From contig NW_027362773.1 in assembly GCF_046119375.1 (NCBI RefSeq), positions 125,178,001 to 125,242,000 of the forward strand: a stretch of DNA of 64,000 nucleotides, read 5' to 3'. A program made the translations under genes and the position numbers. Origin of the DNA: Phyllobates terribilis. Lineage: Eukaryota. Shown piece after piece: positions 1 to 20,585 of this stretch (position 1 is its first letter; each line of letters starts with the position of its first letter). The notes beneath the pieces were generated by a model, which saw nothing but the letters and a program-made list of their open reading frames with translations, ran no database searches and was not told the origin of the DNA.

Positions 1-425
1 ACGGTGCAGCCACCCGTCCATTACCCCCCTCCACGTACGGTGCAGCCACCCGTCCACCCCCCCCCCCCCCCCTCCACGTACGGTGCAGCCACCCGTCCAC
101 CCCCCCCCTCCACGTACGGTGCAGCCACCACACCCCTCCACGTACAGTGCAGCCACCCATCCACCCCCCCTCCGCGTACGGTGCAGCTACCCGTGCAACC
201 CTCCCTCCGCGTACGGTGCAGCCACCCGTGCAACCCTCCCCTCACGGTGCAGCCACCCGTGCACCCCTCCGCGTACGGTACAGCCACCCGTGCACCCCTC
301 CGCGTACGGTACAGCCACCCGTGCACCCCTCCCCTCCGCGTACGGTGCAGCCACCCGTGCACCCCCCCCCCCTCCGCGTACGGTGCAGCCACCCGTGCAT
401 CCCCCTCCACGTACGGTGCAGCCGT
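1..425. repeat. GC-rich minisatellite, ~31-36 bp unit (ccccctccgcgtacggtgcagccacccgtgca), truncated by the window edge
   Basis: Directly visible tandem units with variable C-runs; explains the four overlapping Pro-rich ORFs at 4-596. Confidence 0.9.
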
Positions 426-1548
426 GGAGAGCAGCAGTGGAGACTCTGTTCTGGACCAGGGGAGGGGGGAGTAAAGAAAGTACTTTTTTTTTTTAATAAA
501 CTGCAGCCAGGGAAGAGGGTTTTTTTTCCAAAAACAGATAACTCCTTTAATAAGGTCTCTAAGCTGCCTAAAATCCCTCTTAGGGCTCTTTCATAAATCC
601 TGATATTTCTGGTACTGGAAAAAACAGTACCGGTGCTGCGTCCTATCCGTGTGTAACATCCATGTGCACCATCAGTGTGACACGTACCGGTGTCTGGGAG
701 GAGCAGTACAGTTCGCACGGTTCCCAGGACCTGTATCCTGTATACTCATCATTTTCGCCTGGTCTCCCCGTGAACAGCGCAACGCTGATGAGTTAGAGTT
801 AGCATCCGCTGTCTTTGTATCGCATGTATTAAATCAATAAACCGGCGTGGAGTCCTCCTTTATTTTCCTAATCAGCTGAGTGAAAGCTGACAGCTGGTGT
901 TAATATTCTGGGAAGGGGCAAATATTAATAGGCTGGGAACCTTTATGGCTAACAGCTCACGGCTGTCTGTTTAGCCTTTGCTGGTTAGTAAAAATAAGGG
1001 GGAATTCCACGCCTTTTCTTTTTTTTGGGGAGGCTAAGCAAACAGCTGTGAGCCGTTAGCCATAAAGGTTCGCAGCCTATTAATAGGCTCACAGCCGTTT
1101 GATTAGCCTTTGTTAGTAAAAAGTGGACCCCCCCCCAAAAAAAAAAAAAAATAAAATGGATGTGGGGGTCCCCCTTTATTTTTACTAACCGGCAAAGGCT
1201 AAACAGACAGCTGTGGGCGGATATTAATGGGCTGGGAAGGAGCTATGGATATTGTCCCCCTCCCAGACTAAGAACACCAGCCCTCAGTCGCCCCAGAATT
1301 GTCGCATAATAAGGCTTATCTTCTAGTCCAAAAAATACGGTAGGAGTTTAAAAAGACTAAAAACTCGTTAGGGACAGTTTGGGAGGGTGAAACCAGGTGC
1401 CAGATTCCCTTTTATACCGCTCCGGTGATATATATGGAAAGACCAAGTGGTTTCCTGTAGATCAGTTCAGCATCTTATGTTACTTTAAGTTCACACAATG
1501 TTTAACAATGGATCACAAAAAAAATAAGTCCACGTTTGCCACCCATAC

Positions 1549-2043
1549 CTCAATCTGTGGAACTTTGCGTTTCCTCCTCTTCTGCTTGACGAGAACCACC
1601 CCAGGGATGTTCAGATCCGGCTCCTCCGCAGATAGCCGCATGGAGGCTCCCATTGAGCTCTCATTAAATGTCTGTCTCGTTCTCTCACCATCTTTCTTGC
1701 TCTCCACATCATCTTCTGTGTTCAGTTTAGCAAATCCAAAAAGTGACTTCCGGCCCGGTTTTGATGCCAAGTTTGGGGTGGAGGTGTCAGATGAATCAGA
1801 GTTTTTGGTGGGACTGTACAGAAATGAGCTGCCGCTCATAGACATGTCCAGCCTGCTGTAGGAGCGCCGGACCTTCTGAGACATCACCTCCCGCCGGTCA
1901 TCAGTGGTAGGTGACTGGGGGACGTTCAGAAGAATAGGAGACAGGACGTCTATTTTAGAGGCTGTGGATTGGTCGGGGACACTTTTCGCAATGTCTTGGG
2001 ACTTGTCAAGCACTGCATTCTCCTTCCCGGTGTGAGGAGACAC
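1549..2043 (-). CDS. CDCA5: Sororin coding exon 6 (VSPHTGKEN...KVPQIE)
   Basis: KEN box, KVRRSYSRL, LFGF motif, basic KQKRRKRK before the C-terminal domain; acceptor ttacag at 2044, donor GAG|gtatgg at 1548; 495 nt, phase 0-0. Terminal exon not found in the window. Confidence 0.93.
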
Positions 2044-3043
2044 CTGTAAGGGAATAACAAGTTGTTAGAACTTAGAAGTGATTGCATGAGCTGAGAATCA
2101 GAGAATCCAGAGTGGACCAGGATTGAAGAAAGCAAATCTAGTAAAACAGTTTAGATCCCAATGATCGAGGTGTTGGATCTCTCATATAAACGGGCAGATT
2201 TGGTTTGGTAGAAGCTAGAAACAATGGCCCATGCAAAGGGGCACTTTAAAATAGGAACCTGTCAGCAAACACCCCCCCCCCCCCCCAAAAAAAAACAAAA
2301 CTGAATATACCTGCAGGCATAGCGGTAATCTGCAGGTACATATAACTGTAAACATTTCCGGCTGTCTAAATCAGGGGTGGGCAATTTCCCCAGGGGGCTA
2401 CACGAGAGACCGTGACAGATGTGGGGGGTTGTCAAACCAACAGACTGAAATGAATTCTGCTCAATATTATAATTGTGTCTTATTATTAACTGTGTCACTT
2501 AACATTGAGCAGAATTTAATATGCAGACAGTATGAGCCCCCACCTGGCCCCCTATATACAGTGCGAGTACCCTTTATACATTGTGAACCCTCACACAGCT
2601 GCCTATATACACTGTTATGCCCCCTGATGAAGAAGAAAAGGCGAAACGCACGTTGGGGCGCACGGGTATAATATCTGATCAGCAGTACTACATGTAAGTC
2701 CTTCATATAGCTGAACCAGGTCACCAATAGGAGTGATTTTTGCCACATTGACCTGGTCTAGATGGATGTACTATTTGAGCAAATTGTATTTTAAGTGATT
2801 CTCTCTATAATTAGGTTTATGCTAGACATTTATGATAGCACTATGTCTTGTGTATCCAGCCGATGAAAAGATATACTATGTATCCCTGAAATTCATAGCA
2901 GCACTTTATTTTAATAATTATTTGGTTTAATTTCATTTAATTAATAAAGATATTTTGGTTTAATATACTCTTTTATAGGCTTGCATTTCGGTAGTTATGA
3001 GCAGCATATGGTGACTAACGCACTTAACTGCGGCTGGACTCAC

Positions 3044-3082
3044 CCTTGCGCTTCTCCTAGGAGCGGCAGCAACATTTGACAC
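3044..3082 (-). CDS. CDCA5: Sororin coding exon 5 (VSNVAAAPRRSAR)
   Basis: ttttag|GTG...AGG|gtgagt, 39 nt, phase 0-0; corresponds to the PRRSPR motif of sororin. Confidence 0.85.
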
Positions 3083-3821
3083 CTAAAATCGAAAAAAAAC
3101 TTAGTAAAAATTTGCAAAGTTCTCGACAAATTAATTTTTTTCACAAACTTAAAAGAGTAATTGTTGTTTTAATTTCTATTTCATAAATCATTGGTTTACG
3201 TGAAAATAAGAAGCTTTGGAATATATCTTGTCTGCTTCTTTCTCCTCTCTGATTTTTCATTCATTCTCAATTCATAAGTAAAATCTGTACAATCTGTATT
3301 CAGTGAATACAGACTTTCACACTGCTGAGATAGATGACAGTTGGTGCTTTACAAATTCTATGGAGAGGGAGGAGCTAGAGGCCGTCAGACATTCCGCTGC
3401 AAGTTTTTCATAGAACTTTATGAGCACCAACTGTCATCTATCTCAGTAATTGGAAAGTCTGTCTTCAATGCGGACTGATTTTGACCGTGAATTGAGAATT
3501 TTGATTGTAAAAGATCAGTCCTGATGGAGAAAGAAGTAGATTCCTTGGATAAGATATATTACAAAGTTTCTTATTTTCTCGTGAACTATTAATTTATGAA
3601 AAGCAATTAAATGACGGTTACTCTAAGTTATGCAATATTTTATAGTGTTAGCTCTATAGGTGTGGTGCGGCTCTGTGCCTGCATGTGTATTCTGCCTAGG
3701 AGCGAGTACACACACGACAGCAGATTTCTGTAAGCACTAGGCCGTTTCACAGGTCCAAACAATGGTGTCAATATTCAGATGCATAAGATCGGCCTTCCTC
3801 AGGATTCCTTGAAATACTTAC

Positions 3822-3941
3822 TTTTGGGGTGGACTGTTGTGCAGCCTGTACAGCGCTGGGTCGAGCAGAACCAGAGGAAGGTCTGGGTTGTTCTACCGTG
3901 GATGTAGCATTGGACTGAGATTCAGCAGAGACAAGTGCAGC
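3822..3941 (-). CDS. CDCA5: Sororin coding exon 4 (AALVSAESQ...QSTPK)
   Basis: tttccag|GCT...AAA|gtaagt, 120 nt, phase 0-0, open frame continuous with neighbouring exons. Confidence 0.8.
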
Positions 3942-4342
3942 CTGGAAAAGAAAGAGGTAGCTATGAAATAATAATATATACACTATGGTACGGACACTGT
4001 CAAGTTCTGCAATAACCCAGGAAAAACTAGCTGCCACCACCAATCAGTTATACAGGTTTCTGGTAACGTATGGCCTCATGAGGCTTCAGGGGAGCAGGTT
4101 ATGGAGCAAGTGAAACAAAGTTATTAAATAGTGGTTAGTATATGGGTACAGGAGGCGCTGTGGGCTCGTCACTACTAGTGGCAGCAAATTTGTGGACAGG
4201 GAACCAGGGTTGTCCAAATAAGTGTTGATATAGCCGAGAAGAAGTAAATTTGCGCTAGTGGTAGTGAACAGAAGGACGGCACGAGAGATTTTGAGCGCAA
4301 GGGATAATTTTATTTAATCGAACATGCGCTTAAAAATAGCTA

Positions 4343-4391
4343 GTCATCCCTGAGGAAGACAGCCGCAGCTGTTGAAACGCGTCGGACTGAC
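4343..4391 (+). ncRNA. Minimal type I hammerhead ribozyme
   Basis: Stem I gtca-tcc/gga(c)tgac, core CTGAGGA, stem II gacagc-cgca-gctgtt, GAAA, palindromic mini stem III ACGCGT, cleavage triplet GTC (4381-4383). Confidence 0.8.
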
Positions 4392-6067
4392 CCTTAACCC
4401 AGCTAAAGAGGCGCCCACAGGCCTCCGTACCTTGTGCACGCTGCACACCACGTGACCCTACGTCACGCTGCCCCCCTCTCGCGCGCTTTCCTGGAGACGC
4501 GCACCTTCTCGCGCGCTCTCCACATACACTCTCTCTCTCTCTCTCCTCCTCCTACCCGGAAGTAGCGAGCACGCGGCAGTCACCGGCCGGGACTCCGCTC
4601 TCGCTCCGGACCTCGACCACCCCCAGACGGTAAAGCCCTCTACAGACCGTAAGTAACAATGGGCCCCTGCCCCACCAAGTCCATACTGTACCCAGCTGAC
4701 CCTCTAACGGTTTTTCCCTGTTCCCCGCAGTACTTGCTATCAACCCCTTCAGTTGGGCTCTGCACCAGCCACCCTCCCTATTGCTGAATCTGGCACCCAC
4801 TTTTTCCAGCCAGAGCCTCCTGGTGCACCCAACATAGGATACAGCAGGAGGCTTATGTTTTCCTATCTCTGGTTACCTCTGACATAACTATAGCCTCCTA
4901 CTACAGCACCCTGCTGTATCTACATTACGGAGACCTGAACCAGCATCTACTATTGACACCCTAATCCCTACGAAGCAGGTAAACCACGATCTCTGGGTAA
5001 AAACTGGAGGCTACAGCCACAACCCAGTGATACCCTAACAGATACACCCCCTCCCTACAGATCTCTATACAGCGAACAGAGGCATTACATGCTAGTACAA
5101 GCCTCTTGCTGCATCCTACTTCTGACCTCCTCGTGCTACCTCCACTCAACAAGGGACCAGGACTACTACCTCCAGCTCAGTCTAAGACGTCCCTGGATGC
5201 CCCTTGTACCTACAAACAGGTAACCCTAAACCTCTTGTCTCCAAGGCTTGTACCACAGCTAGATCAGTTCATTTATGATCTATCCCTATTCCTTCCCCTG
5301 CAGATCTAACTCAGATCATCAACCCACAGCCGTGTGTGACATATCCTCTACCTCTCTCCAAGAAGGACCAGGACCGATACCTCCTAGTCATCCAAAATAA
5401 TCAGGACACCCCCGCTACCCTCTAGAAGGTAACTAATCCAAAACTGCCCCCTTCGAACCCAGTATCTTAACCCTTGAGCCCTGCACCCTATTCTTAATAC
5501 TTGTCTCCTCTCACTCCCTATAGTACTGCTCCGGTGAATCCAATATTATCTACACAGCCTGCTGACTGTCACACCGGTAGCAGTGCTACTGTGGAACAAC
5601 AGCCAACTACTACCACAGTCTATTGAGTACCATACCAAGAACAGGTAACTCACGACCCAACTCAGAGTCCAGCAGAGACATCTCTGTCGAGTTCCACCCC
5701 CACTTATCCATACATTTTTTTGTGTACCCCACTCTAGGTACTCCTCGTCCTCCCTCCCAGGCACAAACACGTGCCACCAGTGAACCTCCATACCCCATAC
5801 GAGGCACCAGTATCAGGTAACCACAGACAAACAGATACCTACCCCTTCCCCCATCGCTCATTAGTATACCATATTTATACAAGCCTTTGCCTCCTTATAC
5901 ATCTACTGCAACCGAACATCCTCAGACTACGAGGGAAAAAGGCCTATTTTTATCAATCAGTGATTACCTTGTATCAGTGGACACCGATTTATTTATCGAT
6001 TTTATAACTTAATACCTATTCTTATATCCGACCCAGTGACCTCACTGAGTCTGAATAATTTTAACTA

Positions 6068-8951
6068 CCGTATATTCCGGCGTATAAGACGACTTTTGAA
6101 GACTGAAAAATCTTCTGTCTAGTCTGGGGTCGTCTTATACGCCGGTAATGCTTTTGAACTTTCAGAAATTGACATGCGGGGATACTCTGGGGGTGTTAAT
6201 AAGCTGCCGTGGCCGTATCCCTGCCATGTCGGAGTTAATATAAGGTGGAGGGAGTTAAAATACGGCGGCGGTAGGTCCAGACAGTCAGCGCTTCTGTGCT
6301 GAAACTGACACATCGCTGCGTATTCCCAGCTCCGGACACAGCGCAGGGCTTCTGTGCCGACAGCTTTCACTTGTCACAGAAGCGCTGCGCTGTGTCCGGA
6401 GCTGGGAAGTTCGCGTCGCTTCTGTGACAATATATGAAAAGCCGGCAATTCAGCAGCGGCATAAGCCGGCACCCGACAATTTAGAATAGAAAGAATAGAG
6501 CATCACACATAGATTAGATAGATAGAAACATGTCAGTCACATATATATGAAGTACAGTGACAGTGTTGCTTACTGTACTTGTCATTTAGTGTAAAGGATT
6601 TATTAAAACAAATAATAGTGTTTTCATGCACCGTCTCTTTAAAAAAGCCGGCCGGCAATTCAGCAGCGGTACCCGACAATTTATAACAGACAGAATAGAG
6701 CATCACACATAGATTAGATAGATAGAAACATGTCAGTCACATATATATGAAGTACAGTGACAGTGTTGGTTACTGTACTTGTCATCTAGTGTTAAAATAA
6801 AGGATTTATTTAAAAAAAAATGACGTGGGGTCCCCCCTAATTTAATAGCTAGCAAAGGCTAGGCAGACAGCTGGGGGCTGATATTAATAGCCCAGGAAGG
6901 GAGCCATGAATATTGGCCCCCTCCCAGGCTAGAAACACCAGCCGTCAGCCGCCCCAGAAATGGCGCATCCATAGGATGCGCCAATTCTGGCACTTAGCCT
7001 CGCTCTTCCACGCTGCCCTGGTGCGGTGGCAGGGGGTAATAGGGCTGGGGTTGATGTCAGCTTATAATGCCAGCTGACATCAAGCTCAGGTTAGTAATGG
7101 AGAGGCGTCTATAAGACACCGCCATTACTAACCCCATAGTAAAAGTTAAAAAAAACACAAACACCCAGAATAAAGTCCTTTAATTGAAATAAAGACAATT
7201 CTTTATTGTTCTAAATTAAACCATACTTACCATCACGCCCATTCCAGCTGAAGCCAACGATCTCCTGCAATAAAAGAAAAATAATAAACCAACATCATCC
7301 TTACCTTTCCATGGTTCCCACGACAGCTTCAGCTCTGCTACATCGAGATGACAGGCTGGACCGCAGCAGAACGCCGCCATCCAGCCTGTCATCCCGCAGA
7401 CACTGAGAAGCGCAGGCATGCTTGCGCTCTGCAGTGTCTGGCTGTGACGGCATCCAGATGAGCCGACAATGAACTCAGCTCACCTCCTGGACGTCCGTCA
7501 CTGACAGCGTGGGAAACTTCTACTGCGCATGCGGGGAGCAGGAGAATTTTCCCACGCTGTCAGTGACGTGTATGAGGTGAGCCGAGTTCATTGGACATGA
7601 TCTCGGCTCATCTGGATGCCGTCACAGTCAGACACTGAGGAGCACAAGCATGCCTGCGCTTCTCAGTGTCTGCCGCATGGCAAGCTGAACGGCAGCGTTC
7701 TGCTGCGGTGCAGCCTGTCATGTGAATGTAGCAGAGCTGGACCGGTCCTGGGAACCATGGAAAGGTAAGGATGAGGTTGCTTTATTATTTTACTTTTATT
7801 GCAGGAGATCGTTGGCTTCAGCTGGAATGGGCGTGACGGTAAGTATGGTTTAATTTAGAACATTAAAAAATTGTGTCTTTATTTCAATTAAAGGACTTTA
7901 TTCTGGGTGTTGTGTTTTTTTTAATTACTTTACTAGAAATTCATGGTGGTCATGTCTAATATTGGCGTGACCCCATGAATTTCGGGCTTAGGGCCAGCTG
8001 ATAATGCCAAGCTGGCCCTAACCCCTTTATTACCCAGTGAGCCACCGCACCAGGGCCCTGGATGAGTTGGGTACAGCGCCAGAAGATGGCGCTTCTATGA
8101 ACGCGCCATTTTCCGGGGTGGCTGCGGACTGCAATTTGCAGCGGGGGGGGCCCAGAAAGCTTGGGTCTCCCTGCGCTGCAGATTCCAGCCCCCAGCTGCC
8201 TAGTTGTACCTGGCTGGACACAAAAATAGGGCGAAGCCCCACGTCTTTTTTTTTTTTAATTATTTCATGAAATAATTAAAAAAAAAAAGGGCTTCCCTAT
8301 ATTGTTGTGTCCGGCCAGGTACAAATAGGCAGCTGGTGGTTGGGGGCAGCCCGTTCCTGCCTGCTGTACCTGGCTGGACACAAAAATATGGCGAAGCCCA
8401 CGTCAACATTTTTGGGAAAAATTAATTACAAAATTAATAATAATTTAGGGACTGCATCTTTATTAACCCCTCAATTGTCATTTAGTGTTAAAATAAAGGA
8501 TTTTTTAAAAAGAAAATTGGCGTGGGATCCCCCATCATTATAGTCTCTAGCGGAGGTTAAGCAGACGGCTGGGGCAGATGTTTGAAGTCTGGGAAGGGGG
8601 TAATACCCACGGAGCTTCCCAGGCTACTAATATCAGCCCCCAGCTGAATACCTAGCCTTTACTAGCTATTAGAATGGGGGACCCCCCCAAAAAATGACGT
8701 GGGGTCCCCCCTATTTTAATATGTTTATGAGTGACAGTTTTCCTGCTATATACCTGCATGTCATAAGAATTTAAATTAAAAAAGGACCATGTTAAATTCA
8801 AATCTGTTTTTTTTTAATTTTTACCGGTGTTTGGTATGCATTGGAAAAGGGGTAGTCTTATACGGTGAATATATCCTAAACTCTATATTTTAACAGGAAA
8901 GTAGGGGGGTCGTCTTATACACCAGGTCGTCTTATACGCCGGAATATACGG
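6068..8951. mobile_element. Non-autonomous Tc1/mariner-superfamily (pogo/Tigger-like) DNA transposon
   Basis: Perfect 26-bp TIR ccgtatattccggcgtataagacgac, TA duplication (6066-67, 8952-53); no transposase ORF; internal direct repeat (~6445-6600 / ~6655-6800) and large palindrome. Confidence 0.85.
7150..7925. repeat. Imperfect palindrome, arms ~370 bp centred near 7530
   Basis: e.g. cacccagaataaagtcctttaattgaaataaa / tttatttcaattaaaggactttattctgggtg at the outer ends and cactgacagcgtgggaaa / ttcccacgctgtcagtg at the centre. Confidence 0.85.
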
Positions 8952-11621
8952 TAGCTATTTTTAAGCACATGTTCGATTAAATAAAATTATCCCTTGCACT
9001 CAAAATCTCTTGTGCCGTCCTTCTGTTCACTACCACTAGCGCAAATTTACTTCTTCTCGAAGTTATTAAATATTATATATTTAATCCCAAAAATGAGTCA
9101 GTGTTTATAAAAATAACCAAAAGACATTAGAAAATGGACAAAGCAATAGAGTATATATAATCACACAAAATAAAAAAGATAAACAGAAGAAAATTACCAG
9201 ATCTGATGTCACGGAAACTGTGCAGATCTTAGGGAGGAGAGCGCTCCGACAGGAAAATGGAGCAGTTCTACAGCGATCTCCATCTCCCAGTGCTGAACAA
9301 TGGTTATCATTCAGAATCTGCTTTTATTAGATAACAGTCACTCCCATACCTCCACTTGGTGAGCTTAGAGGGGGCTGATCAATGGGATGTTACTCCTGTC
9401 ACAAAAATTAAGAGAACCCCATCTTTCAGGATATCTACCCCCTGAAGGTCCCAGGCGAGAGATATTAATGCCATATTTCCCATCATGATCTTAGCTTTCT
9501 ATAAAAAGGAAACATGGGATATACGTTATCCAGGGAGCAGATATTAATTGGGAGCTGATGCGCAGGCCGCTCAGTGATGTAAGTAAATGCATTATGTTCA
9601 CCACTTCAATCGAAAATATGTCTCCCATAACTATAGAACCCACACTGGTCACAAAAACCCAAATATTCATAACTTGAAACAGTGCCATCCTGTCTGACAT
9701 TCTTGCTCAAATGTGGCTTTGAAGAGCCGAAATTTATTTCCACAGGCGAGAAAAGTCACACCTCCCAGCTTCTTGTACAAACTTTGTCTGGACTTCATGA
9801 TCTCCATCAGATGACCTACTTCAATTACCTGTTCACAGCAGGAGGTCATAAAGCAACCAGGGTCAGATAGAATGTTAGTTTCATCATAAATTGAAATGGA
9901 AAAAAGAGCTATGATTCAATATGAGGATGACATCCCCTCTCAAGAGATGCTTTTGATATTGGTCCCATTTTACCATTACATCTATGAAAAAACCCAACAT
10001 CAGTCTGTAGATGGGCCCTTACCGAAAGCCCTCAGCTGAAAAATGGGTCTTAAGAACCCTAGTTCCCAATTAGGCAGCATCTTTTATGTGGCCTAAAAAA
10101 TGATTGTTGGCAGCACCCCCCCCTTCCCCATGGAAACCGTAGATGTGCTGCCGACAATATGTAAACTATATGGGAACCAACCGATTGTATTAACAATCAT
10201 TCCTCCCCCTGCAGTTTGCATCGGCCCATGTAAAAGAGGGTCCTTACTTACGAGCCGCTGATCTACCCTAATAAATGGACCATTTCATAATGCTGAGAGA
10301 TCTTCTGAAGCTGTCCATACACATTATATAAATGTCTGCTGATTCCATAGAGAACAGTGGACCAACATAGTGTATAGGGGCAACCCGAATATCCTAAGGT
10401 GCCAAACATTAGGGAAAGAAGGATTGGACATGTTGGATTTCAGTAGGCCTCATCCTTTGTTTTTCAGAGTTATTGATTTAGACAAGTCGGATACTGGTTT
10501 CTCTCTTCTACCTACCTCAGTTTACATGCCTTTGGGTAGTCAGGAGCAGTGGCATATAGCCATCTCACAAATATGGCAACCTTAAAGGGGTTAGCCACCT
10601 TATTTTAACAGATGTGTTGGGGGAGATGATTTTGCGGTGCTTACTAGTATTATAGGTTCTCCTCCAGCACTTTTTAATACAGCATTTATCACAAACCGAA
10701 TTTCGCACCTGCGCTCCTGGCTGCTGACTGAGGATCATGTGACCAGACCTGTCAATCAGTCTCTTCCTATTGAAACAAAACTTCATACTGGAAACTTTTT
10801 TTTTTTTTAATTAGAGGGAACCTGATTCATACTGTCTAAACCTCGGCAGCAAGAATCAGCACCTTGCTGCACGATTGCAGACAGGTATATATCTTTTGTG
10901 AAATTATCCAGCATTTCAGAGAAAATAGTTAGAAAATATGGCAGAGGACCAAAGGAATGAACAAGACTAGTCTGGTGTCGCCCCCATCTGGCTCTCTAAG
11001 GTATTTCTAGAGATGAGTAACATGTCTCTAGCTATGCAAAAGATCTGCCAATCACCTGCAGTGGCACGGAGAAAAGCCGTCCAGGGGCGCACCGGACTAG
11101 TCAAGTCTATTCCTTTCATCCGTGGTGGGATCTTTAAAGTATATGGACTCTGAAACATACCTGGCAGTCGTCACCGGTTTAGGCAGTATGAACCAGGTGA
11201 CAGGTTCCCTCTAAAGGAGTCTAGTCACGTCCCTTATATATTTGTAGATGCCACAAAGTCATGTTTTTTTAAAGTTAAGTGGCCAATCCCTTTAACTTTC
11301 CTTTTGAGTGGAGTAATTTATTTCCAGATGTCTATCCTTACCCTTCTGCAAACTTTACTAAGGACTCCAATTTCTCATCACACTAATTCAATACAGCGTC
11401 GCTCACAAACATATAGCGGAAACAAAGCCCAACAGTTCTGACTTTTTTTCCCCTATAGTTGTTTATTTCAGGATATCTGATGCCAAGCGGAAATGCGAGG
11501 ACAGATCTGTACATAGATCAACTCCATTATTTTTGGAAAATAAATATTGTCATGTCACAGGGGTAAAATCAGTGCAGAAAGACAATTATGGTCCAAGGTA
11601 AAAGAGAATAAATTAACTCAC

Positions 11622-11684
11622 CAGTGTTTTACGAGGGAGGATTTTCTTAGCGGTGATGGATCGTTTCATTACTGGCGCAGCCAT
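11622..11684 (-). CDS. CDCA5: Sororin coding exon 3 (MAAPVMKRSITAKKILPRKTL)
   Basis: attccag|ATG...CTG|gtgagt, 63 nt, phase 0-0; basic segment like sororin PIVLKRIVA. Confidence 0.85.
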
Positions 11685-12893
11685 CTGGAATAAAGAACAT
11701 GTAAGATGGGAGAACTGTATTATTCTCACTTCTGTGCACCAGTGTGATTAACAGCTGTCTATGCACAGTCCTAAAGTACAGTAACAAAATCCAAAATCAC
11801 CGTATTTTTCGGACTATAAGAGGCACTTTTTCAAATTTAGGAGGAACATGGGGGTACGACTTATAATCCAAATGCAGCTCACCTGGCTCGCTTTGGGGCA
11901 GTAAGATCACTGGCAGGAGTGGGGCGATGCTGCAGGCCCTGGGCTGGGAGGAGGGGGTGTCCCAGCGGAGGAGGCCACCTTACGGTGTGTAGCAAAATGG
12001 CGCCGCTAGCGGTGCATGCACAAATCGAGATCTCAGCTTGTCATTGAGCAGAGACCCCAATCTGAGCATGCACCGCCTCCGGCGCCATTTTGCTGAAAAC
12101 CATCGGAGGTTAATCTGAGCATGAACCCCGCCTCCGGCGCCATTTTGCTGGAGAATGCCAGGACTTGAATGTGCGCAAGCACCACCCGTGGCATAGGTGG
12201 CGCTAGCACAAAGTTTAAAAAAGGTGGCTTGTACAAATGCAGAGGGGCAGAGTCTAAGACAACACCTACAGTCCCACCCGATGCTCGAAGAGACTATTGC
12301 ACGAAAACTTCTACAGGTATCCATTAAATCAGTATATAATTTTTCCCCCCTATTCTCCTCCTCTAACAACTAGATGTGTCTTATGGTACGAATACGTTAT
12401 ATATTCATCTGTCCAGCTTTTCCTCCTCTATAGGATCATGACAGGTTATCCAAGACTATTAGGGTTTTATTTTGCCAACTATCTGCCTGTTCTGCAACTA
12501 CTGATTTATGAAAAATTAAAATGACATACTTTTTAAAGTGTAACCGATATTTGAATTATTCCATAAACAAGTAGTGCACAATAAAACTAAGCAGCTTTGT
12601 AAAAGATCTTATCAGAGAAATCTGCTCATTTCTCCTCCTGGACTGATCAGCCATTCTAAAAATTCTAAATTCAAGAGTAAAATCTGTATTCAGTGAAGGA
12701 TTTTGACATTACTGAGATAGGAAATGACAGCTGGTGCTCATAAGAGTCTATGCAGATGGGGCAGATCTTCCCTACTCTTCTCCCATCTACATAGAATCTT
12801 ATCAGCACCAACTGCCATCTCCTATCTCAGTAATGTAATTATCTGTCTTCATTGAATACAGATTTTACCTGTAAATTTAGAATTTTGAGAATA

Positions 12894-13794
12894 AGGCTAT
12901 GTGCCCACGATGCAGAATTGATGCAGATTTTTCCTGAGCGTTTCTGTGTCTCCCTGGCAGAAAAAAAGCATGCAGATTTTACATGTGTTTTTTCTGCCAG
13001 GTAGAAGCGTAAGTGAAGCGTTTTGCACATGTGATTTCGCATGAGGGTTGTCAAGCGCTTTCCAAGTGATTTTAGCATCACTTGGAAAAGTGCTTGACAA
13101 CTTGGTCACACTATATAAATCCATGTAACCGGCAAATGCAGCATCAATAGTAAAAAAAAAAAAAAAAAAACACATTATACTCCCCTTCCAATGGCCCTCG
13201 GTCTCCTCCTTTGGTGCGTCCGGTGTCTTCTGCGGCTCGCAGTGGTGTAAAAGGACCTTCCATGACGTCATTTAGTCATGTGACAGGTCAAGCAACCATC
13301 ACCTGACCGCTGACGTCAGCGGTTGCGTGACATGTCACATGACTAAATGACATCATGGAAGGTCCTTGTACACCACCGCGAGCAGCCGAAGAGCCAGCAG
13401 CGCCGCCAGGCGCAGACAGGGGGCCATCAGAAGGTAAGTATATGTTTACTTTTTATTTCAATTCTTTTTTAACTACAGGTACTATGGTACCCGGGTCTGG
13501 AGGAGAGAGAGTCTCCTCTTCTCCAGACCCAGGTACTATCCGCGCATTGAATCGCTTAATATCAGCATGACTAGTCAATGGCGGCTAAAACGCCGCGATT
13601 CCACAAATTAATGGACATGTTGCGGATTTTTCCACAATGATAATCTGCAGCGGAAATTTCAGCAGCATGTGCACAGCACATGCGGATTATCCTTGGGGAC
13701 CATTGCAGACAACTTAACAAGCGTTTTTAAGCGTTTCCGCGGCAGAAATTACGCTGCGGCAACGCTTAAAAAACACATAGTGTGCACACAGCCT
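12894..13794. mobile_element. MITE (AGG-ended TIR, TAA/TTA flanks; T2/Kolobok-like) nested in another MITE
   Basis: aggctatgtgcccac ... gtgtgcacacagcct termini; related copy at ~38770-38985. Confidence 0.6.
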
Positions 13795-14086
13795 TACTGA
13801 TCAGTCCAAGAGGAGAAATATGCAATTTCTCTGATAAGATCTAATACAAAGTTACTTATTTCCAAGTGTACTATTGATTTTAAAGGACGGTTCCTCTTTA
13901 AAGGTTGTGTCCTGACCCACTCGTCTCTGCAATGTGAGGCGCCACTGACAGGTTGTTAACAAGGCGTCACCTGTCACACTCACCTGTCACTGGAGAGCGA
14001 GGCAAGGACAAACCCTTTAATGACTCAGTGATCGGCTAGTGTTGCCCACACCCAACATATATGACAGGTCTGTGCCATACACTCAC

Positions 14087-14154
14087 CGGGGTGTCTGCAG
14101 ATTTGTTGAGAGACGCAGAATTTCTCTGGGATCTTCTAGCAGGAGGAGTGACAC
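14087..14154 (-). CDS. CDCA5: Sororin coding exon 2 (SVTPPARRSQRNSASLNKSADTP)
   Basis: ccctacag|GT...CCG|gtgagt, 68 nt, phase 1-0; RRSQR motif as in sororin. Confidence 0.88.
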
Positions 14155-14180
14155 CTGTAGGGCGAGAGGAAGGGGCATAA

Positions 14181-16108
14181 GACACAGCTCGGGCCGGGCC
14201 GGGGCGACGACGACGGACACAGCTCGGGCCGGGCCGGGGCGACGACGACGGACACAGCTCGGGCCGGGCCGGGGCGACGACGACGGACACAGCTCGGGCC
14301 GGGCCGGGGCGACGACGACGGACACAGCTCGGGCCGGGCCGGGGCGACGACGACGGACACAGCTCGGGCCGGGCCGGGGCGACGACGACGGACACAGCTC
14401 GGGCCGGGCCGGGGCGACGACGACGGACACAGCTCGGGCCGGGCCGGGGCGACGACGACGGACACAGCTCGGGCCGGGCCGGGGCGACGACGACGGACAC
14501 AGCTCGGGCCGGGCCGGGGCGACGACGACGGACACAGCTCGGGCCGGGCCGGGGCGACGACGACGGACACAGCTCGGGCCGGGCCGGGGCGACGACGACG
14601 GACACAGCTCGGGCCGGGCCGGGGGGACGACGACGGACACAGCTCGGGCCGGGCCGGGGGGACGACGACGGACACAGCTCGGGCCGGGCCGGGGGGACGA
14701 CGACGGACACAGCTCGGGCCGGGCCGGGGGGACGACGACGGACACAGCTCGGGCCGGGCCGGGGGGACGACGACGGACACAGCTCGGGCCGGGCCGGGGG
14801 GACGACGACGGACACAGCTCGGGCCGGGCCGGGGGGACGACGACGGACACAGCTCGGGCCGGGCCGGGGGGACGACGACGGACACAGCTCGGGCCGGGCC
14901 GGGGGGCCGACGACGGACACAGCTCGGGCCGGGCCGGGGGGCCGACGACGGACACAGCTCGGGCCGGGCCGGGGGGCCGACGACGGACACAGCTCGGGCC
15001 GGGCCGGGGGGCCGACGACGGACACAGCTCGGGCCGGGCCGACGACGACGGACACAGCTCGGGCCGGGCCGGGGGGACGACGACGGACACAGCTCGGGCC
15101 GGGCCGGGGGGACGACGACGGACACAGCTCGGGCCGGGCCGGGGGGACGACGACGGACACAGCTCGGGCCGGGCCGGGGGGACGACGACGGACACAGCTC
15201 GGGCCGGGCCGGGGGGACGACGACGGACACAGCTCGGGCCGGGCCGGGGGGACGACGACGGACACAGCTCGGGCCGGGCCGGGGGGACGACGACGGACAC
15301 AGCTCGGGCCGGGCCGGGGGGACGACGACGGACACAGCTCGGGCCGGGCCGGGGGGACGACGACGGACACAGCTCGGGCCGGGCCGGGGGGACGACGACG
15401 GACACAGCTCGGGCCGGGCCGGGGGGACGACGACGGACACAGCTCGGGCCGGGCCGGGGGGACGACGACGGACACAGCTCGGGCCGGGCCGGGGGGACGA
15501 CGACGGACACAGCTCGGGCCGGGCCGGGGGGACGACGACGGACACAGCTCGGGCCGGGCCGGGGGGACGACGACGGACACAGCTCGGGCCGGGCCGGGGG
15601 GACGACGACGGACACAGCTCGGGCCGGGCCGGGGGGACGACGACGGACACAGCTCGGGCCGGGCCGGGGGGACGACGACGGACACAGCTCGGGCCGGGCC
15701 GGGGGGACGACGACGGACACAGCTCGGGCCGGGCCGGGGGGACGACGACGGACACAGCTCGGGCCGGGGGGACGACGACGGACACAGCTCGGGCCGGGGG
15801 GACGACGACGGACACAGCTCGGGCCGGGGGGACGACGACGGACACAGCTCGGGCCGGGGGGACGACGACGGACACAGCTCGGGCCGGGGGGACGACGACG
15901 GACACAGCTCGGGCCGGGGGGACGACGACGGACACAGCTCGGGCCGGGGGGACGACGACGGACACAGCTCGGGCCGGGGGGACGACGACGGACACAGCTC
16001 GGGCCGGGGGGACGACGACGGACACAGCTCGGGCCGGGGGGACGACGACGGACACAGCTCGGGCCGGGGGGACGACGACGGACACAGCTCGGGCCGGGGG
16101 GACGACGA
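14181..16108. repeat. G-rich, CpG-rich minisatellite filling CDCA5 intron 1 (35-bp unit gacacagctcgggccgggccgggg(c/g)gacgacgacg; 30-bp variant distally)
   Basis: Directly visible tandem array; accounts for the four 699-787 aa repetitive ORFs. Confidence 0.97.
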
Positions 16109-16187
16109 CATAGTCCAGGTCCCTGTGGCCCCCACCTGCCCTGGGTGCAGCCTTTATGGGGGACATCACAGCACAGGGGACACTCAC

Positions 16188-16245
16188 TGTCCTTCTCCCA
16201 GGTGACCGTCCCTCGGCTGCCGCCCCTCTTCTTCCGATCAGACAT
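16188..16245 (-). CDS. CDCA5: Sororin coding exon 1 (MSDRKKRGGSRGTVTWEKD)
   Basis: Kozak GCTGCCATG at 16245, donor ACA|gtgagt; 58 nt, phase 1 fits exon 2 (58+68=126 nt). Confidence 0.82.
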
Positions 16246-16800
16246 GGCAGCGGCTCCAGATCTCTTCCCCGAGGACACGATGACAGTATATCGCTCCGGT
16301 ACCGCACCGGATTACATAACGCGCACACCACTCCCAGGTCGCAGCTTCCTTTTTGGATTCCTCTTTGTTAAAACCTCCTACAAGTCTATCAACTCTATAT
16401 AAAGCTGAACCCGACGACCATCGCACAAGCCACAATCTCTGCTGCCAAGATCGGAGAAAGCAGCGCGTTCAAATGTCCCGCGCGCCCGTTCTGCTCCCGG
16501 AACAGGAAGTGACGTCACTACATGCAATCCGCCGCCATATTGCGTGTGGAGGAAGTGACGAGCAGTGAGCTGCGCCCTGACACCGAGGCTGTCACTGTCA
16601 CACGGAAGAGACGTGGCAGATAGAAGTCAGACTTGGTGGAGGGGAAGGAAAAATAGAAAACAGCTTGAGGGGGTGAAGGGCGAGAGTCACCGGCTGTGGA
16701 GTGTAATGGGGAGCGGGGGCGGAAAGGATAAGACACAGTGACACCAAGGAGATAACACGGAAGTGGGGCGTGACTGACCCTGGCAGTGTAAGGTAAGGCT
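16246..16800. promoter_or_regulatory. Bidirectional CDCA5/ZFPL1 CpG promoter
   Basis: Head-to-head genes; GGAAGTGACGTCA (ETS-CRE) 16505-16517, second GGAAGTGACG 16551-16560, YY1-like CCGCCATATT 16532-16541, CGGAAGTGGGGCGTG ~16758-16772; candidate ZFPL1 non-coding exon 1 donors at 16565 (gtgagc) or 16793 (gtaagg). Confidence 0.8.
16468..16482 (-). promoter_or_regulatory. CDE-CHR cell-cycle element oriented to CDCA5
   Basis: Minus strand CGCGG-GACA-TTTGAA: CDE, 4-nt spacer, CHR, the arrangement known from CDK1/cyclin promoters. Confidence 0.7.
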
Positions 16801-17364
16801 GTAACCCCTCTGTGTGTGACCAGGGCTCCAGACATTCTGTCTATGCAATCTATTGTTCTCTGCTATCAGCCATCCCAGGCTTCCACACCTGCTGATGGCA
16901 CTGGGTGGGATGTACATTGCATCATCACTGTGGGGTCTTGCTTTTAGCAATCAAGACATACAGTCTATGTAATCCGTCTAGTGTTCTCTATTATCAGCCA
17001 TTTCAGGCTAAATAATTTGGCTGGAAAAAAAACAACAACAACTAAATCTATAAAATCACAGCCAGTTGGGCTTTTGTTAAAGAAGTTCATCAGTGAAAAC
17101 AAGGCCGCTGGGGCCTTAACAGATCGGCAGAACTGGCGCTGTTATCCCACTACAATGATTGACCACCACTTTGGAAAAGCCGAGCCCCATCGGGAATGAA
17201 TGGGCATACGCACTGCCCGCTCTATTCTGATGAGCGGACCCAGGGAAGGTCGGGTTTTGGTACCCAACCAAACTTTAGTTCAAAGTTCCATTCGGGAACC
17301 AGAACTGTACCCAGAAGCCATTGAAATCAAAAGGGATCGGGACTACGGACCTGGTAAATCTCAG

Positions 17365-17760
17365 TCTCGCTCCTCCTCTTTTGCGCTCGCTCTCGCTCCT
17401 CTTTTGCGCTCGCTCTCGCTCCTCTTTTGCGCTCGCTCTCGCTCCTCCTCTTTTGCGCTCGCTCTCGCTCCTCCTCTTTTGCGCTCGCTCTCGCTCCTCC
17501 TCTTTTGCGCTCGCTCTCGCTCCTCCTCTTTTGCGCTCGCTCCTCCTCTTTTGCTCTCGCTCCTCCTCTTTTGCTCTCGCTCCTCCTCTTTTGCTCTCGC
17601 TCCTCCTCTTTTGCTCTCGCTCCTCCTCTTTTGCTCTCGCTCCTCCTCTTTTGCTCTCGCTCCTCCTCTTTTGCTCTCGCTCCTCCTCTTTTGCTCTCGC
17701 TCCTCCTCTTTTGCTCTCGCTCTCGCTCCTCCTCTTTTGCTCTCGCTCCTCCTCTTTTGC
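17365..17760. repeat. Polypyrimidine/polypurine tandem repeat, ~20-bp unit (ctcgctcctcctcttttgct)
   Basis: Directly visible; explains the five low-complexity ORFs at 17200-17908. Confidence 0.95.
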
Positions 17761-18962
17761 GCTGTCACCAGTTTGCATCCGTTTCGTCTTTGCACAGACC
17801 CAAAAACACACATCCTTTTATTCTGTAAAAAAGGTGGATAGCAGATGGAACAGACCGCTGCAGACAATCATTGTACTCAGTAGTGACGGGCCCACCTTGC
17901 TACCATGACCAGTGACGACAGTGATTGTGTGCAGCAGTTAGAAAATCATGACTGCAAGACAACTAACCACCGGAGCGGTGGGGAATTTACAAGGTGAGCA
18001 TGTTCTGCTTCATCGCGTTCCCTGATTCCTGGACATTTGTTACACATCCTATTTTCCCCCCAGGAAGTAGTCGCTGGTGTTAAGCGTCCTGCTATAATAT
18101 ATGCGCTGTTCCCTAGTGTCTGCACCACCTATACGTGTGTCCGGGCATTGTTGAATCACTTCTGTAGTCGCCCTAGTTGACAGACCTGTAATATAATTAT
18201 CCTGGATCTCACTTGCTCCAGTTCTTTTTGTACTCATTGTTATCTGAATCCTTTTTGATCTGATTTATTTGGTGATTACTGTTGTAATTTTTGCATTTGA
18301 GTTTATACCTTTATAATGGATGTTATTCCTTATTTTGGCACATTTCCCGGGGGGTGATTCGTGTGTTAGGAGGACAACGCGTGCGGCGTTAGATGGCACG
18401 GCTACACTGCTGTCATTTTCTTGTTTTTGCTCCTATAACTGAGCAGAATAAATTAAATGAAGAACGCAAATGTGAAGACAGGCTAACTCCGTCTTAGGGA
18501 ATGTTCACATGAGACGGATGGAAAATCCAGAGACAATTATAGGACTAGCAAATAGGATGAGATTTTGCCAAATCTTATCCACAGCCTGGATGAAAATCTG
18601 CACGCAAGTTAACCTGCGGTGCAGATTGTAAGTCCACAGTATGAGATCCGAGTTGTCCCTTTAGTGGAAGCTGAGTTTCACTCTTGGTGCTGCTTCAGGA
18701 GGTAACACTTGCCACCCGTTTCCATTACAGACTGAATCCGATTAGTGATGAACTCAACTACAGGATATCTTGTAATTGGCTTATTGGAAGGGGATCCCTC
18801 TAACAAAAAGTGGAAAACCCCTTTAGCATGAGATCTGACTTGTCCCTTTAATTGAAGCTTAGTTTCGCTTTTTGTGCTGTTTCAGGGGATAACACTTGCT
18901 TCCAGTTTCCATTACAGACTGAATCCGATTCGTGAAGAACTCAACTATAGGATATCTTGTGA

Positions 18963-19256
<294 letters not shown>

Positions 19257-19459
19257 TGACATACACAGGATATGTCTGATAGATGCAGGCTCTTCGGTGA
19301 GACCTTCATCTGTCTCATGAAGGAGGCTGGTCTTGCGGCTGCTGTGAATAGAGTGGTGGCCACACGTCAGGCTGCCCCTATTCACACAGTACCCTCGGAC
19401 GCTTGCTGAGGACCTGCCATAGATATCTGAGCTGGGACTAACCCTGTAGAGACATGTAA

Positions 19460-19615
<156 letters not shown>

Positions 19616-20585
19616 TAACTCTGGAAGTAAATAAATTGTCATCTCTACACAGGGGCTCTGCAGTTCTTGCACATCAGGTGCATGTAAAAGAACATTAAAG
19701 GGGTTTTCTCTTTCTCATAAATGGTTAAAATAGGAAATTACTTGTTAAAACAAGCAGCTTTGCAATCGGCGTAATATCAGCACAAAATGACTGTTCAAAC
19801 TAAGCACATTATTTTGCTGGGGGCGTAGCACTAATAAAAATCATTAATTTATTGTTCTAATTTGTTGCTTCTTTTGCCAGAAATGGTTCTTTATTAAAAT
19901 ATGCCAATGAGGTGCTTGATTTCGGACTGCCATGACCAAGCAGTTCAGTGCTTCTTCCCACCTATTTGTTATATTTTTTTTATTAATTTTATGTCTATCA
20001 GCGGTAGCGGGTTTCCTAGGAATGGCACACCGTGCTTATAAGCTGTTTTCTATAGAGCTTGTAAGTGCTGCTCTAAAGCTTGCTGGGTCACTGCATCTGG
20101 CCAACTGTGTCACTACACTCCTCTGATGCAGCATTGGAGAATGCTCCGTTCTGACCAGCAAAGCGTTGATGCCGCTGGTCTGATCTGTCAATCAAGCAGG
20201 CGTGCACCGCCCTCTGACAAGCAGGAAGCCAGGAGGCAGTGGCAGCTGCACTCCTGAAGGTAGGGTGAGGATAACCCTTTAATGCTAGCCATAAATATAA
20301 AATAACTATGGGAAGAAGCTGATTGTTACCCCTTTACGGTCCCACCATCGATGCTTTGTTTCTTCTGAAAAATAAATGCTAGTTGATTGTTCAGATGCCG
20401 CTAGATATTAAGTGATCGCCACATCTGGCTGAGCAAAATGGGATATGCTGACAAATGTCCACGACCACTATTATACCACCTACACAGCAGCAATAGAACG
20501 CCATGTACAAAGCACTTAGTGTTTTTATTTATTAATTTTGCTGTATTACACACCAGTGACCGCCTTTTTTGTAGTTTAGAAATGA

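Follow-up and report, generated by a model that had tools for sequence, protein, structure and literature searches.

A hammerhead-bearing, intron-rich insertion in CDCA5 of Phyllobates terribilis as a probable leader of a Neptune Penelope-like element

Closest described systems

Penelope-like elements (PLEs) keep spliceosomal introns, and the available text of two studies (PMC3846280, PMC8557442) describes both the mechanism and the significance of this as open. In the case of D. virilis Penelope and Chlamys-3_cRei (available text of PMC8557442), the start site lies in the pLTR, introns are retained in genomic copies and a 5' UTR intron overlaps the internal promoter, all of which is similar to what we describe here. 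However, these elements have one intron as compared to six or seven here, that portion of the paper mentions no early poly(A) site, which is present here, and the spliced and partly spliced copies found here go beyond it. Neptune EN+ PLEs, as portrayed in the accessible parts of PMC8557442 and PMC4209133, likewise combine an RT, a Cys-rich linker and a GIY-YIG at the C terminus with a minimal type I hammerhead past the ORF, partial tandem and inverted arms, AT-rich targets and variation of the 3' 'tail'. Unlike in those descriptions, a leader of 1.2-2.1 kb with up to seven short introns and an internal AATAAA extends here from the hammerhead to ORF1, and the tail interval is about 97 nt instead of 30-40. 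Our literature search found no PLE with a multi-intron leader and an internal AATAAA between hammerhead and ORF1.

Three further systems are comparable in part, each as far as the source text at hand goes. The anole Poseidon element PAc (PMC11167929) likewise has two adjacent internal RT-start sites that define the tail, and its template is RNA uncleaved by the hammerhead. In PAc they fall within the ORF, 111-118 nt in and close to the hammerhead, whereas the two sites here are found some 1.85 and 1.95 kb downstream, ahead of ORF1, and each follows a repeated bulged-helix motif by 21-34 nt. Non-LTR retrozymes (10.64898/2026.07.22.740005; PMC4209133) are also non-coding, pLTR-related and equipped with a type I hammerhead, but they are short tandem hammerhead units, while here a single spliced stretch of 2 kb begins upstream of the cut site and forms no independent lineage. 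In Adineta vaga (PMC3846280), PLE machinery likewise moved sequence with multiple introns that all stayed in place; the cargo in that case was a host coding gene, carried once in trans, whereas the introns described here are inherited with the element and evolve as part of it.

A leader with six or seven introns is informative in that each genomic copy records the state of its template, i.e. whether it was capped or cut, to which degree it was spliced, and whether it was terminated or read through. Additionally, introns are both gained through duplicated modules and lost exactly within one mobile element, and the leader offers an RNA structure as a candidate for the docking of a telomerase-related RT. 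In annotation such leaders would pass as multi-exon lncRNA genes, and ORF-centred PLE models would overlook about one third of the element.

The insertion and its parent element

The window, i.e. the whole stretch of 64,000 nucleotides that was analysed, holds an insertion at 4131-9059. It lies antisense in intron 3 of CDCA5 (sororin; 3942-11618, minus strand, approximate bounds from protein alignment), the exons on either side being at about 11702-11619 and 3941-3816 (minus strand). Identical 13-bp TSDs, AAGTTATTAAATA, border it at 4118-4130 and 9060-9072 on the forward strand, their final 2-3 bases also matching the element arm. Placement, flanks and mobilisation by a PLE had been proposed in a preliminary description and were borne out; the same description saw a non-autonomous unit with its own promoter, encoding a multiply spliced lncRNA. 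We consider it probable, instead, that 4131-9059 represents the leader of an autonomous Neptune PLE, inserted in 5'-truncated form and damaged.

The segment 4131-4344 (minus strand) is not a 5' part of the element but an inverted arm, the reverse complement of the leader's last ~213 nt, which run from the poly(A) signal as far as the second cluster of 3' ends, ending at +32 from motif 2. The window copy is damaged in several ways: TATA box, distal stem of the hammerhead and intron-6 acceptor are all missing, and a MITE sits inside it.

The order of the parent unit is TATA, hammerhead, CpG block, six introns, AATAAA, structured region, ORF1 and ORF2, and the tandem units contain the ORFs and measure 4.8-5.4 kb. 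In L050, L039 and L038 the leader continues into ORF1 and then ORF2, and in L036 it does likewise across an insertion; the stretch is an integral part of this two-ORF element, not a unit of its own. In L004, L005 and L009 an RT-ZnF-GIY-YIG ORF and a TATA stand immediately 5' of the hammerhead, and sister copies have the same ~2 kb between this ORF with its TATA and ORF1 of the next unit.

ORF2 encodes an RT, a Zn finger and a GIY-YIG, in a frame overlapping that of ORF1. Its matches are amphibian RT/GIY-YIG proteins, E<=1e-30 being reached by 1262 of the 8000 that were scored; its homologues carry PF00078, PF01541, PF26215 and PF28514, and a Pfam scan of ORF2 itself returned 0 families at E<=0.1. 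An RT with C-terminal GIY-YIG is recognisable from the motifs MDITSLY, GTAMG, RFIDD and VIYGLYCPCGKLYIGRT. Between RT and EN, PCKKCKTC forms a CX2-5CxxC zinc-finger linker, which the available text of PMC8557442 gives as a Neptune feature. Because Nematis has the same linker, the name Neptune rests on the motifs together with the vertebrate host, and the assignment is a putative one. The hammerhead in the pLTR, the partial tandem and inverted structure and the tail are all present, as in PLEs.

A self-standing, non-autonomous lncRNA element with its own promoter would explain why many leader-only copies begin at one base, why spliced poly(A) RNA is present (contigs) and why CpG motifs downstream of the start are conserved. 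Against this, the leader is continuous with the ORFs in fuller copies, and leader-only copies are without a TATA box and unclustered in the tree. In this tree of 24 rows no separate clade of leader-only copies and no independent ORF-less lineage were found: labels changed 7 times between leader-only and ORF-linked copies versus a shuffled mean of 7.3, 277 of 500 shuffles being equally low at a modest tree resolution (6 of 21 branches starred). Moreover, the contigs are uninverted over 4834-4866, where the window copy carries a 33-nt micro-inversion unseen in the sister copies compared, and they therefore derive from other copies. Retrozyme-type tandems of short hammerhead units were not found, a single 2-kb leader being present instead. 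Such an element is largely refuted already and very improbable; leader-only copies are truncation by-products that have arisen repeatedly.

Introns, transcripts and coding potential

The splicing data consist of assembled public contigs that are presumed to be RNA and carry no strand, start site or level. Aligned to the window, they join introns 1-5 from GT to AG exactly where these had been predicted on the forward strand: 4649-4730 (82 nt; joint 4648>4731 in X3), 4979-5060 (82 nt, 87-89 in sister copies; X3 and X5), 5220-5303 (84 nt; X3 and X4), 5429-5523 (95 nt; X3, with an equivalent joint with bridging letters in X4) and 5645-5737 (93 nt; X3 and X4). On L050, GT..AG joints were detected at introns 1, 2, 3, 5 and 6, and at intron 4 with bridging letters. 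Intron 6 is 85 nt in sister copies (joint 2552>2636 on L050 in X1, X2 and X5). It was correctly suspected in the window, where a remnant with intact donor remains at 5817-5877 (forward strand), but neither of the acceptors proposed for it, 5883 and 5925, is used, the family acceptor having been lost in a 27-nt deletion. A scar at 5578-5584 (forward strand) marks where the 69% subfamily has a seventh intron, which is exactly missing here.

Splice signals are conserved as expected of functional introns in the preliminary description: GT/AG positions in 24 of 24 cases and splice windows in 51 of 54, versus about 62% of positions elsewhere (298/486 in introns, 61%; 609/967 in exons, 63%). Our intron rule found 6 introns in a sister leader, compared to a mean of 0.29 and a maximum of 2 in 200 Markov resamples, and 0 on its reverse strand. 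Both intron-containing and intronless copies exist. In L104 all six introns are gone, intron 1 exactly so, there is no poly(A) and the copy ends at +25 of motif 1; in L052 the first four introns are missing relative to its 92% sister L117, the last two being retained. The one intronless match in the genome is a single insertion of another subfamily (2 matches versus 110 unspliced) and therefore cannot account for window-type spliced contigs. By the intron rule, 2 of 15 spacers (L059, L070) have no intron, so many introns are dispensable in the clade.

The contigs, presumed to be RNA, correspond to a spliced, polyadenylated lncRNA of >200 nt. The lncRNA proposed earlier stands as one of two transcript fates; a second role, as 5' UTR of ORF1, is favoured by the depletion of ATG, with 76 observed in 15 spacers against 243 expected. 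This threefold deficit is the lowest ratio of all 64 trinucleotides, beside a CAT ratio of 0.80 in the same spacers. As a joined spliced leader and ORF1 were seen in 0 public contigs, ATG depletion and L104 are the basis for the 5' UTR role.

In agreement with the earlier statement that no continuous ORF runs through the exons, the unspliced window copy has no ATG ORF of at least 90 aa, 0 of 24 in-silico spliced copies have one >89 aa, and no conserved ATG ORF was found across copies. One could still suppose that the element captured a Pro/Thr-rich coding gene, now seen as the exons, which is either decayed or initiated at a non-AUG codon. A stop-free frame of 158-174 codons spans several junctions in 4 of 5 copies of the 69% subfamily, and between subfamilies the lengths of many exon indels are divisible by 3 (3, 6, 9, 18 nt). 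However, no ATG precedes this frame, 3-12 of 100 shuffles match its length, indels of 1, 2 and 4 nt occur too, and in the 97% and 87% subfamilies, whose longest stop-free frames equal shuffle expectation, it is interrupted by stops and shifts. Exons are also no better conserved than introns, and modules arise via tandem duplication within several families. A captured gene therefore seems improbable. Related families have the same layout, several having gained intron-bearing modules by tandem duplication; in the window, the suspected exon-intron module duplication is reflected in an exon 3/4 repeat (76% over 29 nt).

Transcript ends and the copied template

The hammerhead noted earlier is a minimal type I at 4346-4402 (forward strand), with core CTGAGGA...GAAAC GC GTC read at 4350-4356 and 4374-4383 and a predicted cut after 4383. 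The CUGANGA, GAAA and NUH core, stems I-II and palindromic helix III are all recognisable from sequence and cross-family variation; stem II varies across families with its pairing maintained. An Rfam search gave no hammerhead match at E<=1, and for the window hammerhead piece the MFE fold is unremarkable (z -0.29). The 5' arm of distal stem I, located upstream of 4345 in fuller copies, is missing from the window copy (cognate -16.3 versus swapped -12.0 kcal/mol, 16 types; window -8.8). Genomic copies begin upstream of the cut site, which suggests a hammerhead-uncut template.

Pol II would start at 4346 (forward strand), the A of ATCCC; in fuller copies a TATA box stands about 30 nt above this position. 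The TATA, conserved ~35 nt above the hammerhead core, belongs to a TATA/CRE promoter upstream of 4345 in these copies. The promoter formerly ascribed to the window copy is thus only partly there, as the start-fixing TATA is lost. What stands is the conserved downstream part, the CpG block at 4440-4612 (forward strand; E-box, TCTCGCGCG twice, ETS-like site), with CACGTG at 4449-54 and CCGGAAGT at 4556-63, all where they had been reported. CCGGAA recurs in 9 of 15 spacers at around +220, and a 22-nt motif (4577-4598), likewise conserved, has 243 exact genome matches (control 0) and is found in divergent contigs also. At the inferred start site 18 distinct copies begin, 13 with a G before A+1 (P=3e-5; 10 of 15 once three ambiguous junctions are dropped); the G occurs in 0 of 114 promoter-retaining copies, three of which were assigned to this class by hand. 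We take this G to be likely a cap mark; the window copy itself has C at this position.

At the other end, the AATAAA previously noticed at 8980 is followed by a poly(A) site at about 9003 (8980-9003, forward strand), mapped from a poly(A) loose end on a sister copy (L050:2878 in X1), where contigs of X1, X2 and X5 end. The window copy ends 22 nt past the first AGCGC motif of a conserved two-hairpin RNA (9038-9059, forward strand), and 9059 is inferred to be the RT start. Non-edge 3' ends number 63, of which 17 fall past motif 1 (+21 to +34), 29 past motif 2 (+22 to +32) and 15 upstream of motif 1; the inspected subset of these 15 are internal repeats, insertions or deletions.

The intron-rich stretch could mainly be the 3' end of the ORF1-ORF2 RNA, with AATAAA as the normal end of the full transcript, a second promoter between AATAAA and ORF1, and the hammerhead removing the spliced 3' part. 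The distal hammerhead stem forms on RNA from ORF2 only, AATAAA is kept 235-350 nt 5' of the ORF1 ATG in 13 of 13 spacers reaching ORF1, and L052 is partly spliced with ORF2 upstream, so ORF2-derived RNA of that kind exists. This reading, however, leaves the ATG depletion, the conserved TATA and the extra-G copies unexplained, and blocks past AATAAA covary as RNA helices would (the structure being drawn from the same alignment as the counts). We regard it as unlikely as the main function; since the same DNA lies at both ends of the tandem unit, it is compatible with the leader reading.

Introns could also persist through an antisense RNA template (available text of PMC3846280), and head-to-head inverted arms occur here too. 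Such a template makes exact spliced copies (L104, L052, the lost seventh intron) and a G at the sense start site impossible, and the in vitro Poseidon work used a sense template, according to the accessible text of PMC11167929. We hold this highly improbable. The examined copies favour sense, capped, nascent RNA.

Altogether, the extra G, the intronless and partly spliced copies and the end clusters point to a sense, capped, read-through pre-mRNA template, and the intron-rich leader of a Neptune PLE, copied from capped, unspliced read-through RNA, is probably the best explanation overall. Pol II would initiate within hammerhead stem I, so that the full ribozyme would form only on RNA entering from an upstream ORF. 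The early poly(A) site would terminate many transcripts, giving a non-coding RNA of 1.28 kb that would be uncopyable because it lacks the RT-start motifs. Read-through RNA would serve both as ORF1/ORF2 mRNA (AUG-poor 5' UTR, -1 frameshift) and as mostly unspliced template, on which RT, starting from an RNA motif shortly after the poly(A) site, would copy back to the cap; acting before or during splicing, it would retain the introns.

Introns may be kept for raised expression or a putative shielding of the 3.4-kb intronless ORF block (HUSH-like, intron-sensing), a plausible idea that falls somewhat short of probable. More tentative still, taken as one whole, is a frog Neptune clade with a host-gene-like multi-exon unit before its ORFs, in which introns multiply by module duplication, are pruned through reverse-transcribed spliced RNA and protect the intronless ORF block against intron-sensing silencing, while early poly(A), in-hammerhead start and kissing-loop RT-docking RNA act as a switch between harmless lncRNA and transposition RNA.

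The MITE within the window copy is a TIR element at 6068-8951, presumably pogo-like. It has no ATG ORF of at least 90 aa. It inserted later, with a TA duplication at 6066-67 and 8952-53, and holds a nested palindromic piece at 7195-7874.

A damaged copy and its parent element

The copy in the window is a damaged fragment, flanked by a 13-bp target-site duplication (4118-4130 and 9060-9072). It begins with an inverted arm (4131-4344) that repeats the element's own 3' end in reverse-complement orientation, and carries a TA-duplicating TIR element with internal repeats (6068-8951), in which a 91% palindrome (7195-7874) is nested. A micro-inversion (4834-4866) was seen in none of the sister copies compared. 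The antisense location inside CDCA5 intron 3 is upheld, and the hammerhead core, the CpG motifs (e.g. CACGTG at 4449-4454), introns 1-5 (4649-4730, 4979-5060, 5220-5303, 5429-5523 and 5645-5737) and AATAAA (8980) were found in the sequence where the preliminary description had placed them. In the case of intron 6, neither of the proposed acceptors (5883, 5925) is the family site, as the family acceptor was removed by a 27-nt deletion.

The element had been taken for a self-standing, non-autonomous lncRNA unit mobilised by a Penelope-like element (PLE). Instead, at four loci (L050, L039, L038, L036) the leader, i.e. the approx. 2-kb stretch with six introns, continues into ORF1 and then, in the -1 frame, into ORF2. 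At L004, L005 and L009, the sequence 5' of the hammerhead holds a CRE, a TATA box and the terminal part of an ORF, and this ORF has the motifs of an RT, a PCKKCKTC linker and a GIY-YIG domain. Therefore, the stretch represents the spacer, itself non-coding, of an autonomous PLE of the Neptune type. ORF1 has 330 aa in L050 (L050:3085-4074), with a conserved N-terminal half, and a U7 run at the ORF1/ORF2 overlap in 7 of the 7 families displayed (L050:3984-3993 and six others) is a predicted -1 ribosomal frameshift site. A homologue search related ORF2 to amphibian RT/GIY-YIG proteins. Scanned against Pfam, ORF1 and two pieces of ORF2 all stayed without a match; the PDB sequence search with ORF2 gave a single one (E 0.37), judged to be chance, and the homologue search with ORF1 none among 950 candidates of 181-578 aa.

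The genome DNA search returned 911 candidates, a figure that is not a copy number; the best 40 all match the intron-containing query at 92-100%, in a ranking that favours such matches. Among 30 compared loci, 22 (L009-L030, e.g. G000:C87:787370 and C12:294898622) hold one and the same truncated insertion, multiplied as part of a larger repeated unit, with upstream flanks 99% identical; up to 64 matches lie on small contigs.

Splicing and coding potential of the leader

When three subfamilies (identity about 97, 87 and 69%) are compared, GT/AG is kept at all 24 of 24 positions and the splice windows at 51 of 54, whereas conservation reaches 61% inside introns and 63% in exons. Such an excess conservation of splice signals had been proposed as a test, and the introns are judged to be real. 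The predicted junctions were also sought in contigs assembled from public runs, whose RNA status is guessed, none of the listed runs being on record as RNA; all six introns were found joined. In one contig of X3, which differs from the window at 7 positions, both intron 4 and intron 5 are joined. Another contig, from X1, has a loose end of 23 A approx. 20 nt past AATAAA, at the base where further contigs of X1, X2 and X5 end. The inversion at 4834-4866 of the window copy is in none of the contigs listed. In the genome, the spliced junctions of exons 2-3 and exons 5-6 are confined to both arms of one 87%-type insertion, compared to 110 unspliced matches (46 on C1-C13). Window-type spliced contigs are therefore best read as RNA. 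Contig cover of ORF1 is almost nil and carries no weight either way. The peak contig depth of the whole stretch, with varied loose ends, lies at window 4577-4612, where a short motif, possibly a hairpin, is common to divergent families.

The spliced leader RNA measures 1.18-1.34 kb, and its longest ATG ORF among 24 copies has 89 aa. No conserved ORF was found in the spliced exons, the window-type ORF being lost in the 69% subfamily. In the two younger subfamilies, the longest stop-free frames equal shuffle expectation. In the 69% subfamily, 4 of 5 copies hold an ATG-less frame of 158-174 codons, and the length of several exon indels is divisible by three; this leader may thus have a coding past. 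Over 15 spacers no trinucleotide is as strongly depleted as ATG (76 observed, 243 expected; for CAT, 406 and 510), as expected for a scanned 5' UTR, or for an RNA that avoids decay.

Start site, template and 3' ends

Copy ends were compared in 63 motif-selected regions at 60 loci, for which the first 100 of the 243 matches had been taken. Many of these regions share their first base, the A that corresponds to 4346; it lies 37 nt before the predicted hammerhead cut and approx. 30 nt past the TATA box and would be a capped Pol II start site. Among the distinct copies with this start, over all loci, 13 of 18 have a G before the A (microhomology or a local duplication makes three of the 13 ambiguous), compared to C or T in 114 of 114 promoter-retaining copies, a class to which L059, L069 and L071 were assigned by hand. 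We take the extra G to be a copied cap. In L114 and L133, the junction between inverted arm and start site falls in a GATC microhomology of which the extra G is part, a hint at the way the inversion is primed.

Regarding intron state, exact absence was found in two insertions among 64 aligned regions (at least 80% identity, >500 nt): L104 is without all six introns, and L052, when compared to L117, is without the first four. From the two younger subfamilies, a seventh intron is missing in an equally exact manner. L104 is also without poly(A), and its 3' end lies beyond the poly(A) site; spliced read-through RNA therefore exists. An antisense template has been suggested for PLE intron retention (available text of PMC3846280). 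The exact intron losses and the extra G favour a sense pre-mRNA template over an antisense one, in agreement with an anole element studied in vitro, as far as described in the accessible part of PMC11167929. Transcription would be attenuated at the early poly(A) site, and the read-through RNA may act both as mRNA and as template.

In the case of the hammerhead, the Rfam scan of window 1-20000 returned none, only sub-threshold miRNA matches on palindromes, and the MFE fold of 4338-4395 gave no signal (z -0.29). The distal stem I joins sequence 5' of the start site with sequence 3' of the cut site. Over 16 upstream types its energy is -16.3 kcal/mol for cognate and -12.0 for swapped pairs, the cognate pair ranking first in 4 types only; the window copy, without the upstream arm, reaches -8.8 kcal/mol. 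As the distal stem needs sequence upstream of the start site, the full fold is thus predicted only on RNA coming from ORF2.

In the interval from AATAAA to ORF1, a common fold is seen in 18 sequences: two helices in which AGCGC pairs with GC-N-GCT, a further, inner helix, and two loops complementary to each other (GTGGTT, AACCAC). Pairing cells amount to 90.9% on this alignment, and two-sided changes to 15 cells, compared to 4.9 in shuffles, for a structure derived from the same sequences; covariation in helix 4 was never seen among them. Most of the 63 3' ends compared cluster behind the two AGCGC motifs: 17 lie at +21-34 nt of motif 1 and 29 at +22-32 nt of motif 2; two fall slightly earlier, and 15 upstream of motif 1. 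For the window copy, the right end falls at +22 of motif 1, and the inverted arm stops at +32 of motif 2. In a 24-row tree, 9 leader-only copies are intermixed with 13 ORF-linked ones (7 label changes, 7.3 when shuffled); leader-only copies may be by-products of reverse transcription starting at the first motif pair.

Layout across the clade

The genome search with ORF1 revealed many related families (best 150 of 7464 first-look candidates scored), and 20 of its loci were taken for comparison. AATAAA lies 235-350 nt 5' of the ORF1 ATG in 13 of 13 spacers reaching ORF1. Rule-based prediction gave 0-7 introns per spacer in 15 spacers, compared to 0.14-0.34 in resamples; outside the subfamilies of the window, all introns are predictions. 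Six loci (L057, L063, L071, L072, L040 and L045) carry tandem duplications of 136-314 nt, which span predicted introns in L057, L071 and L040. A subfamily (L045, L053, L054, L132, L133) has a 314-324 nt tandem duplication over the exon 2/intron 2 region, and two copies of the 69% subfamily (L039, L040) show a 1026-nt internal leader deletion, in tandem with ORFs. At L070, L060, L073, L059 and L075, a pyrimidine-rich stretch and an AG stand immediately 5' of the ORF1 ATG. This could be a splice acceptor that bypasses the poly(A) site; in the window's family no clear counterpart was found.

For Penelope and Chlamys-3, one 5' UTR intron each is described, together with the suggestion that upstream introns may occur in other PLEs (PMC8557442, in the portion available). 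A multi-intron, internally polyadenylated PLE leader was not found in the literature searched, a scope lying outside Repbase/Dfam, Arkhipova 2003/2006/2017, Schostak 2008, and figures and supplements. According to the accessible text of PMC8770142, HUSH represses long intronless units and introns counter this repression. Speculatively, the leader introns might raise output, or counter HUSH.

Some minor features of the window were also noted: a small putative CDCA5 exon (3079-3023, minus strand) that lies after exon 4 and before the large sororin exon, a GC-rich minisatellite with which the window opens (1-420), and, in CDCA5 intron 1, an A+G-skewed, GC-rich stretch (14001-16000) that is probably a tandem repeat.
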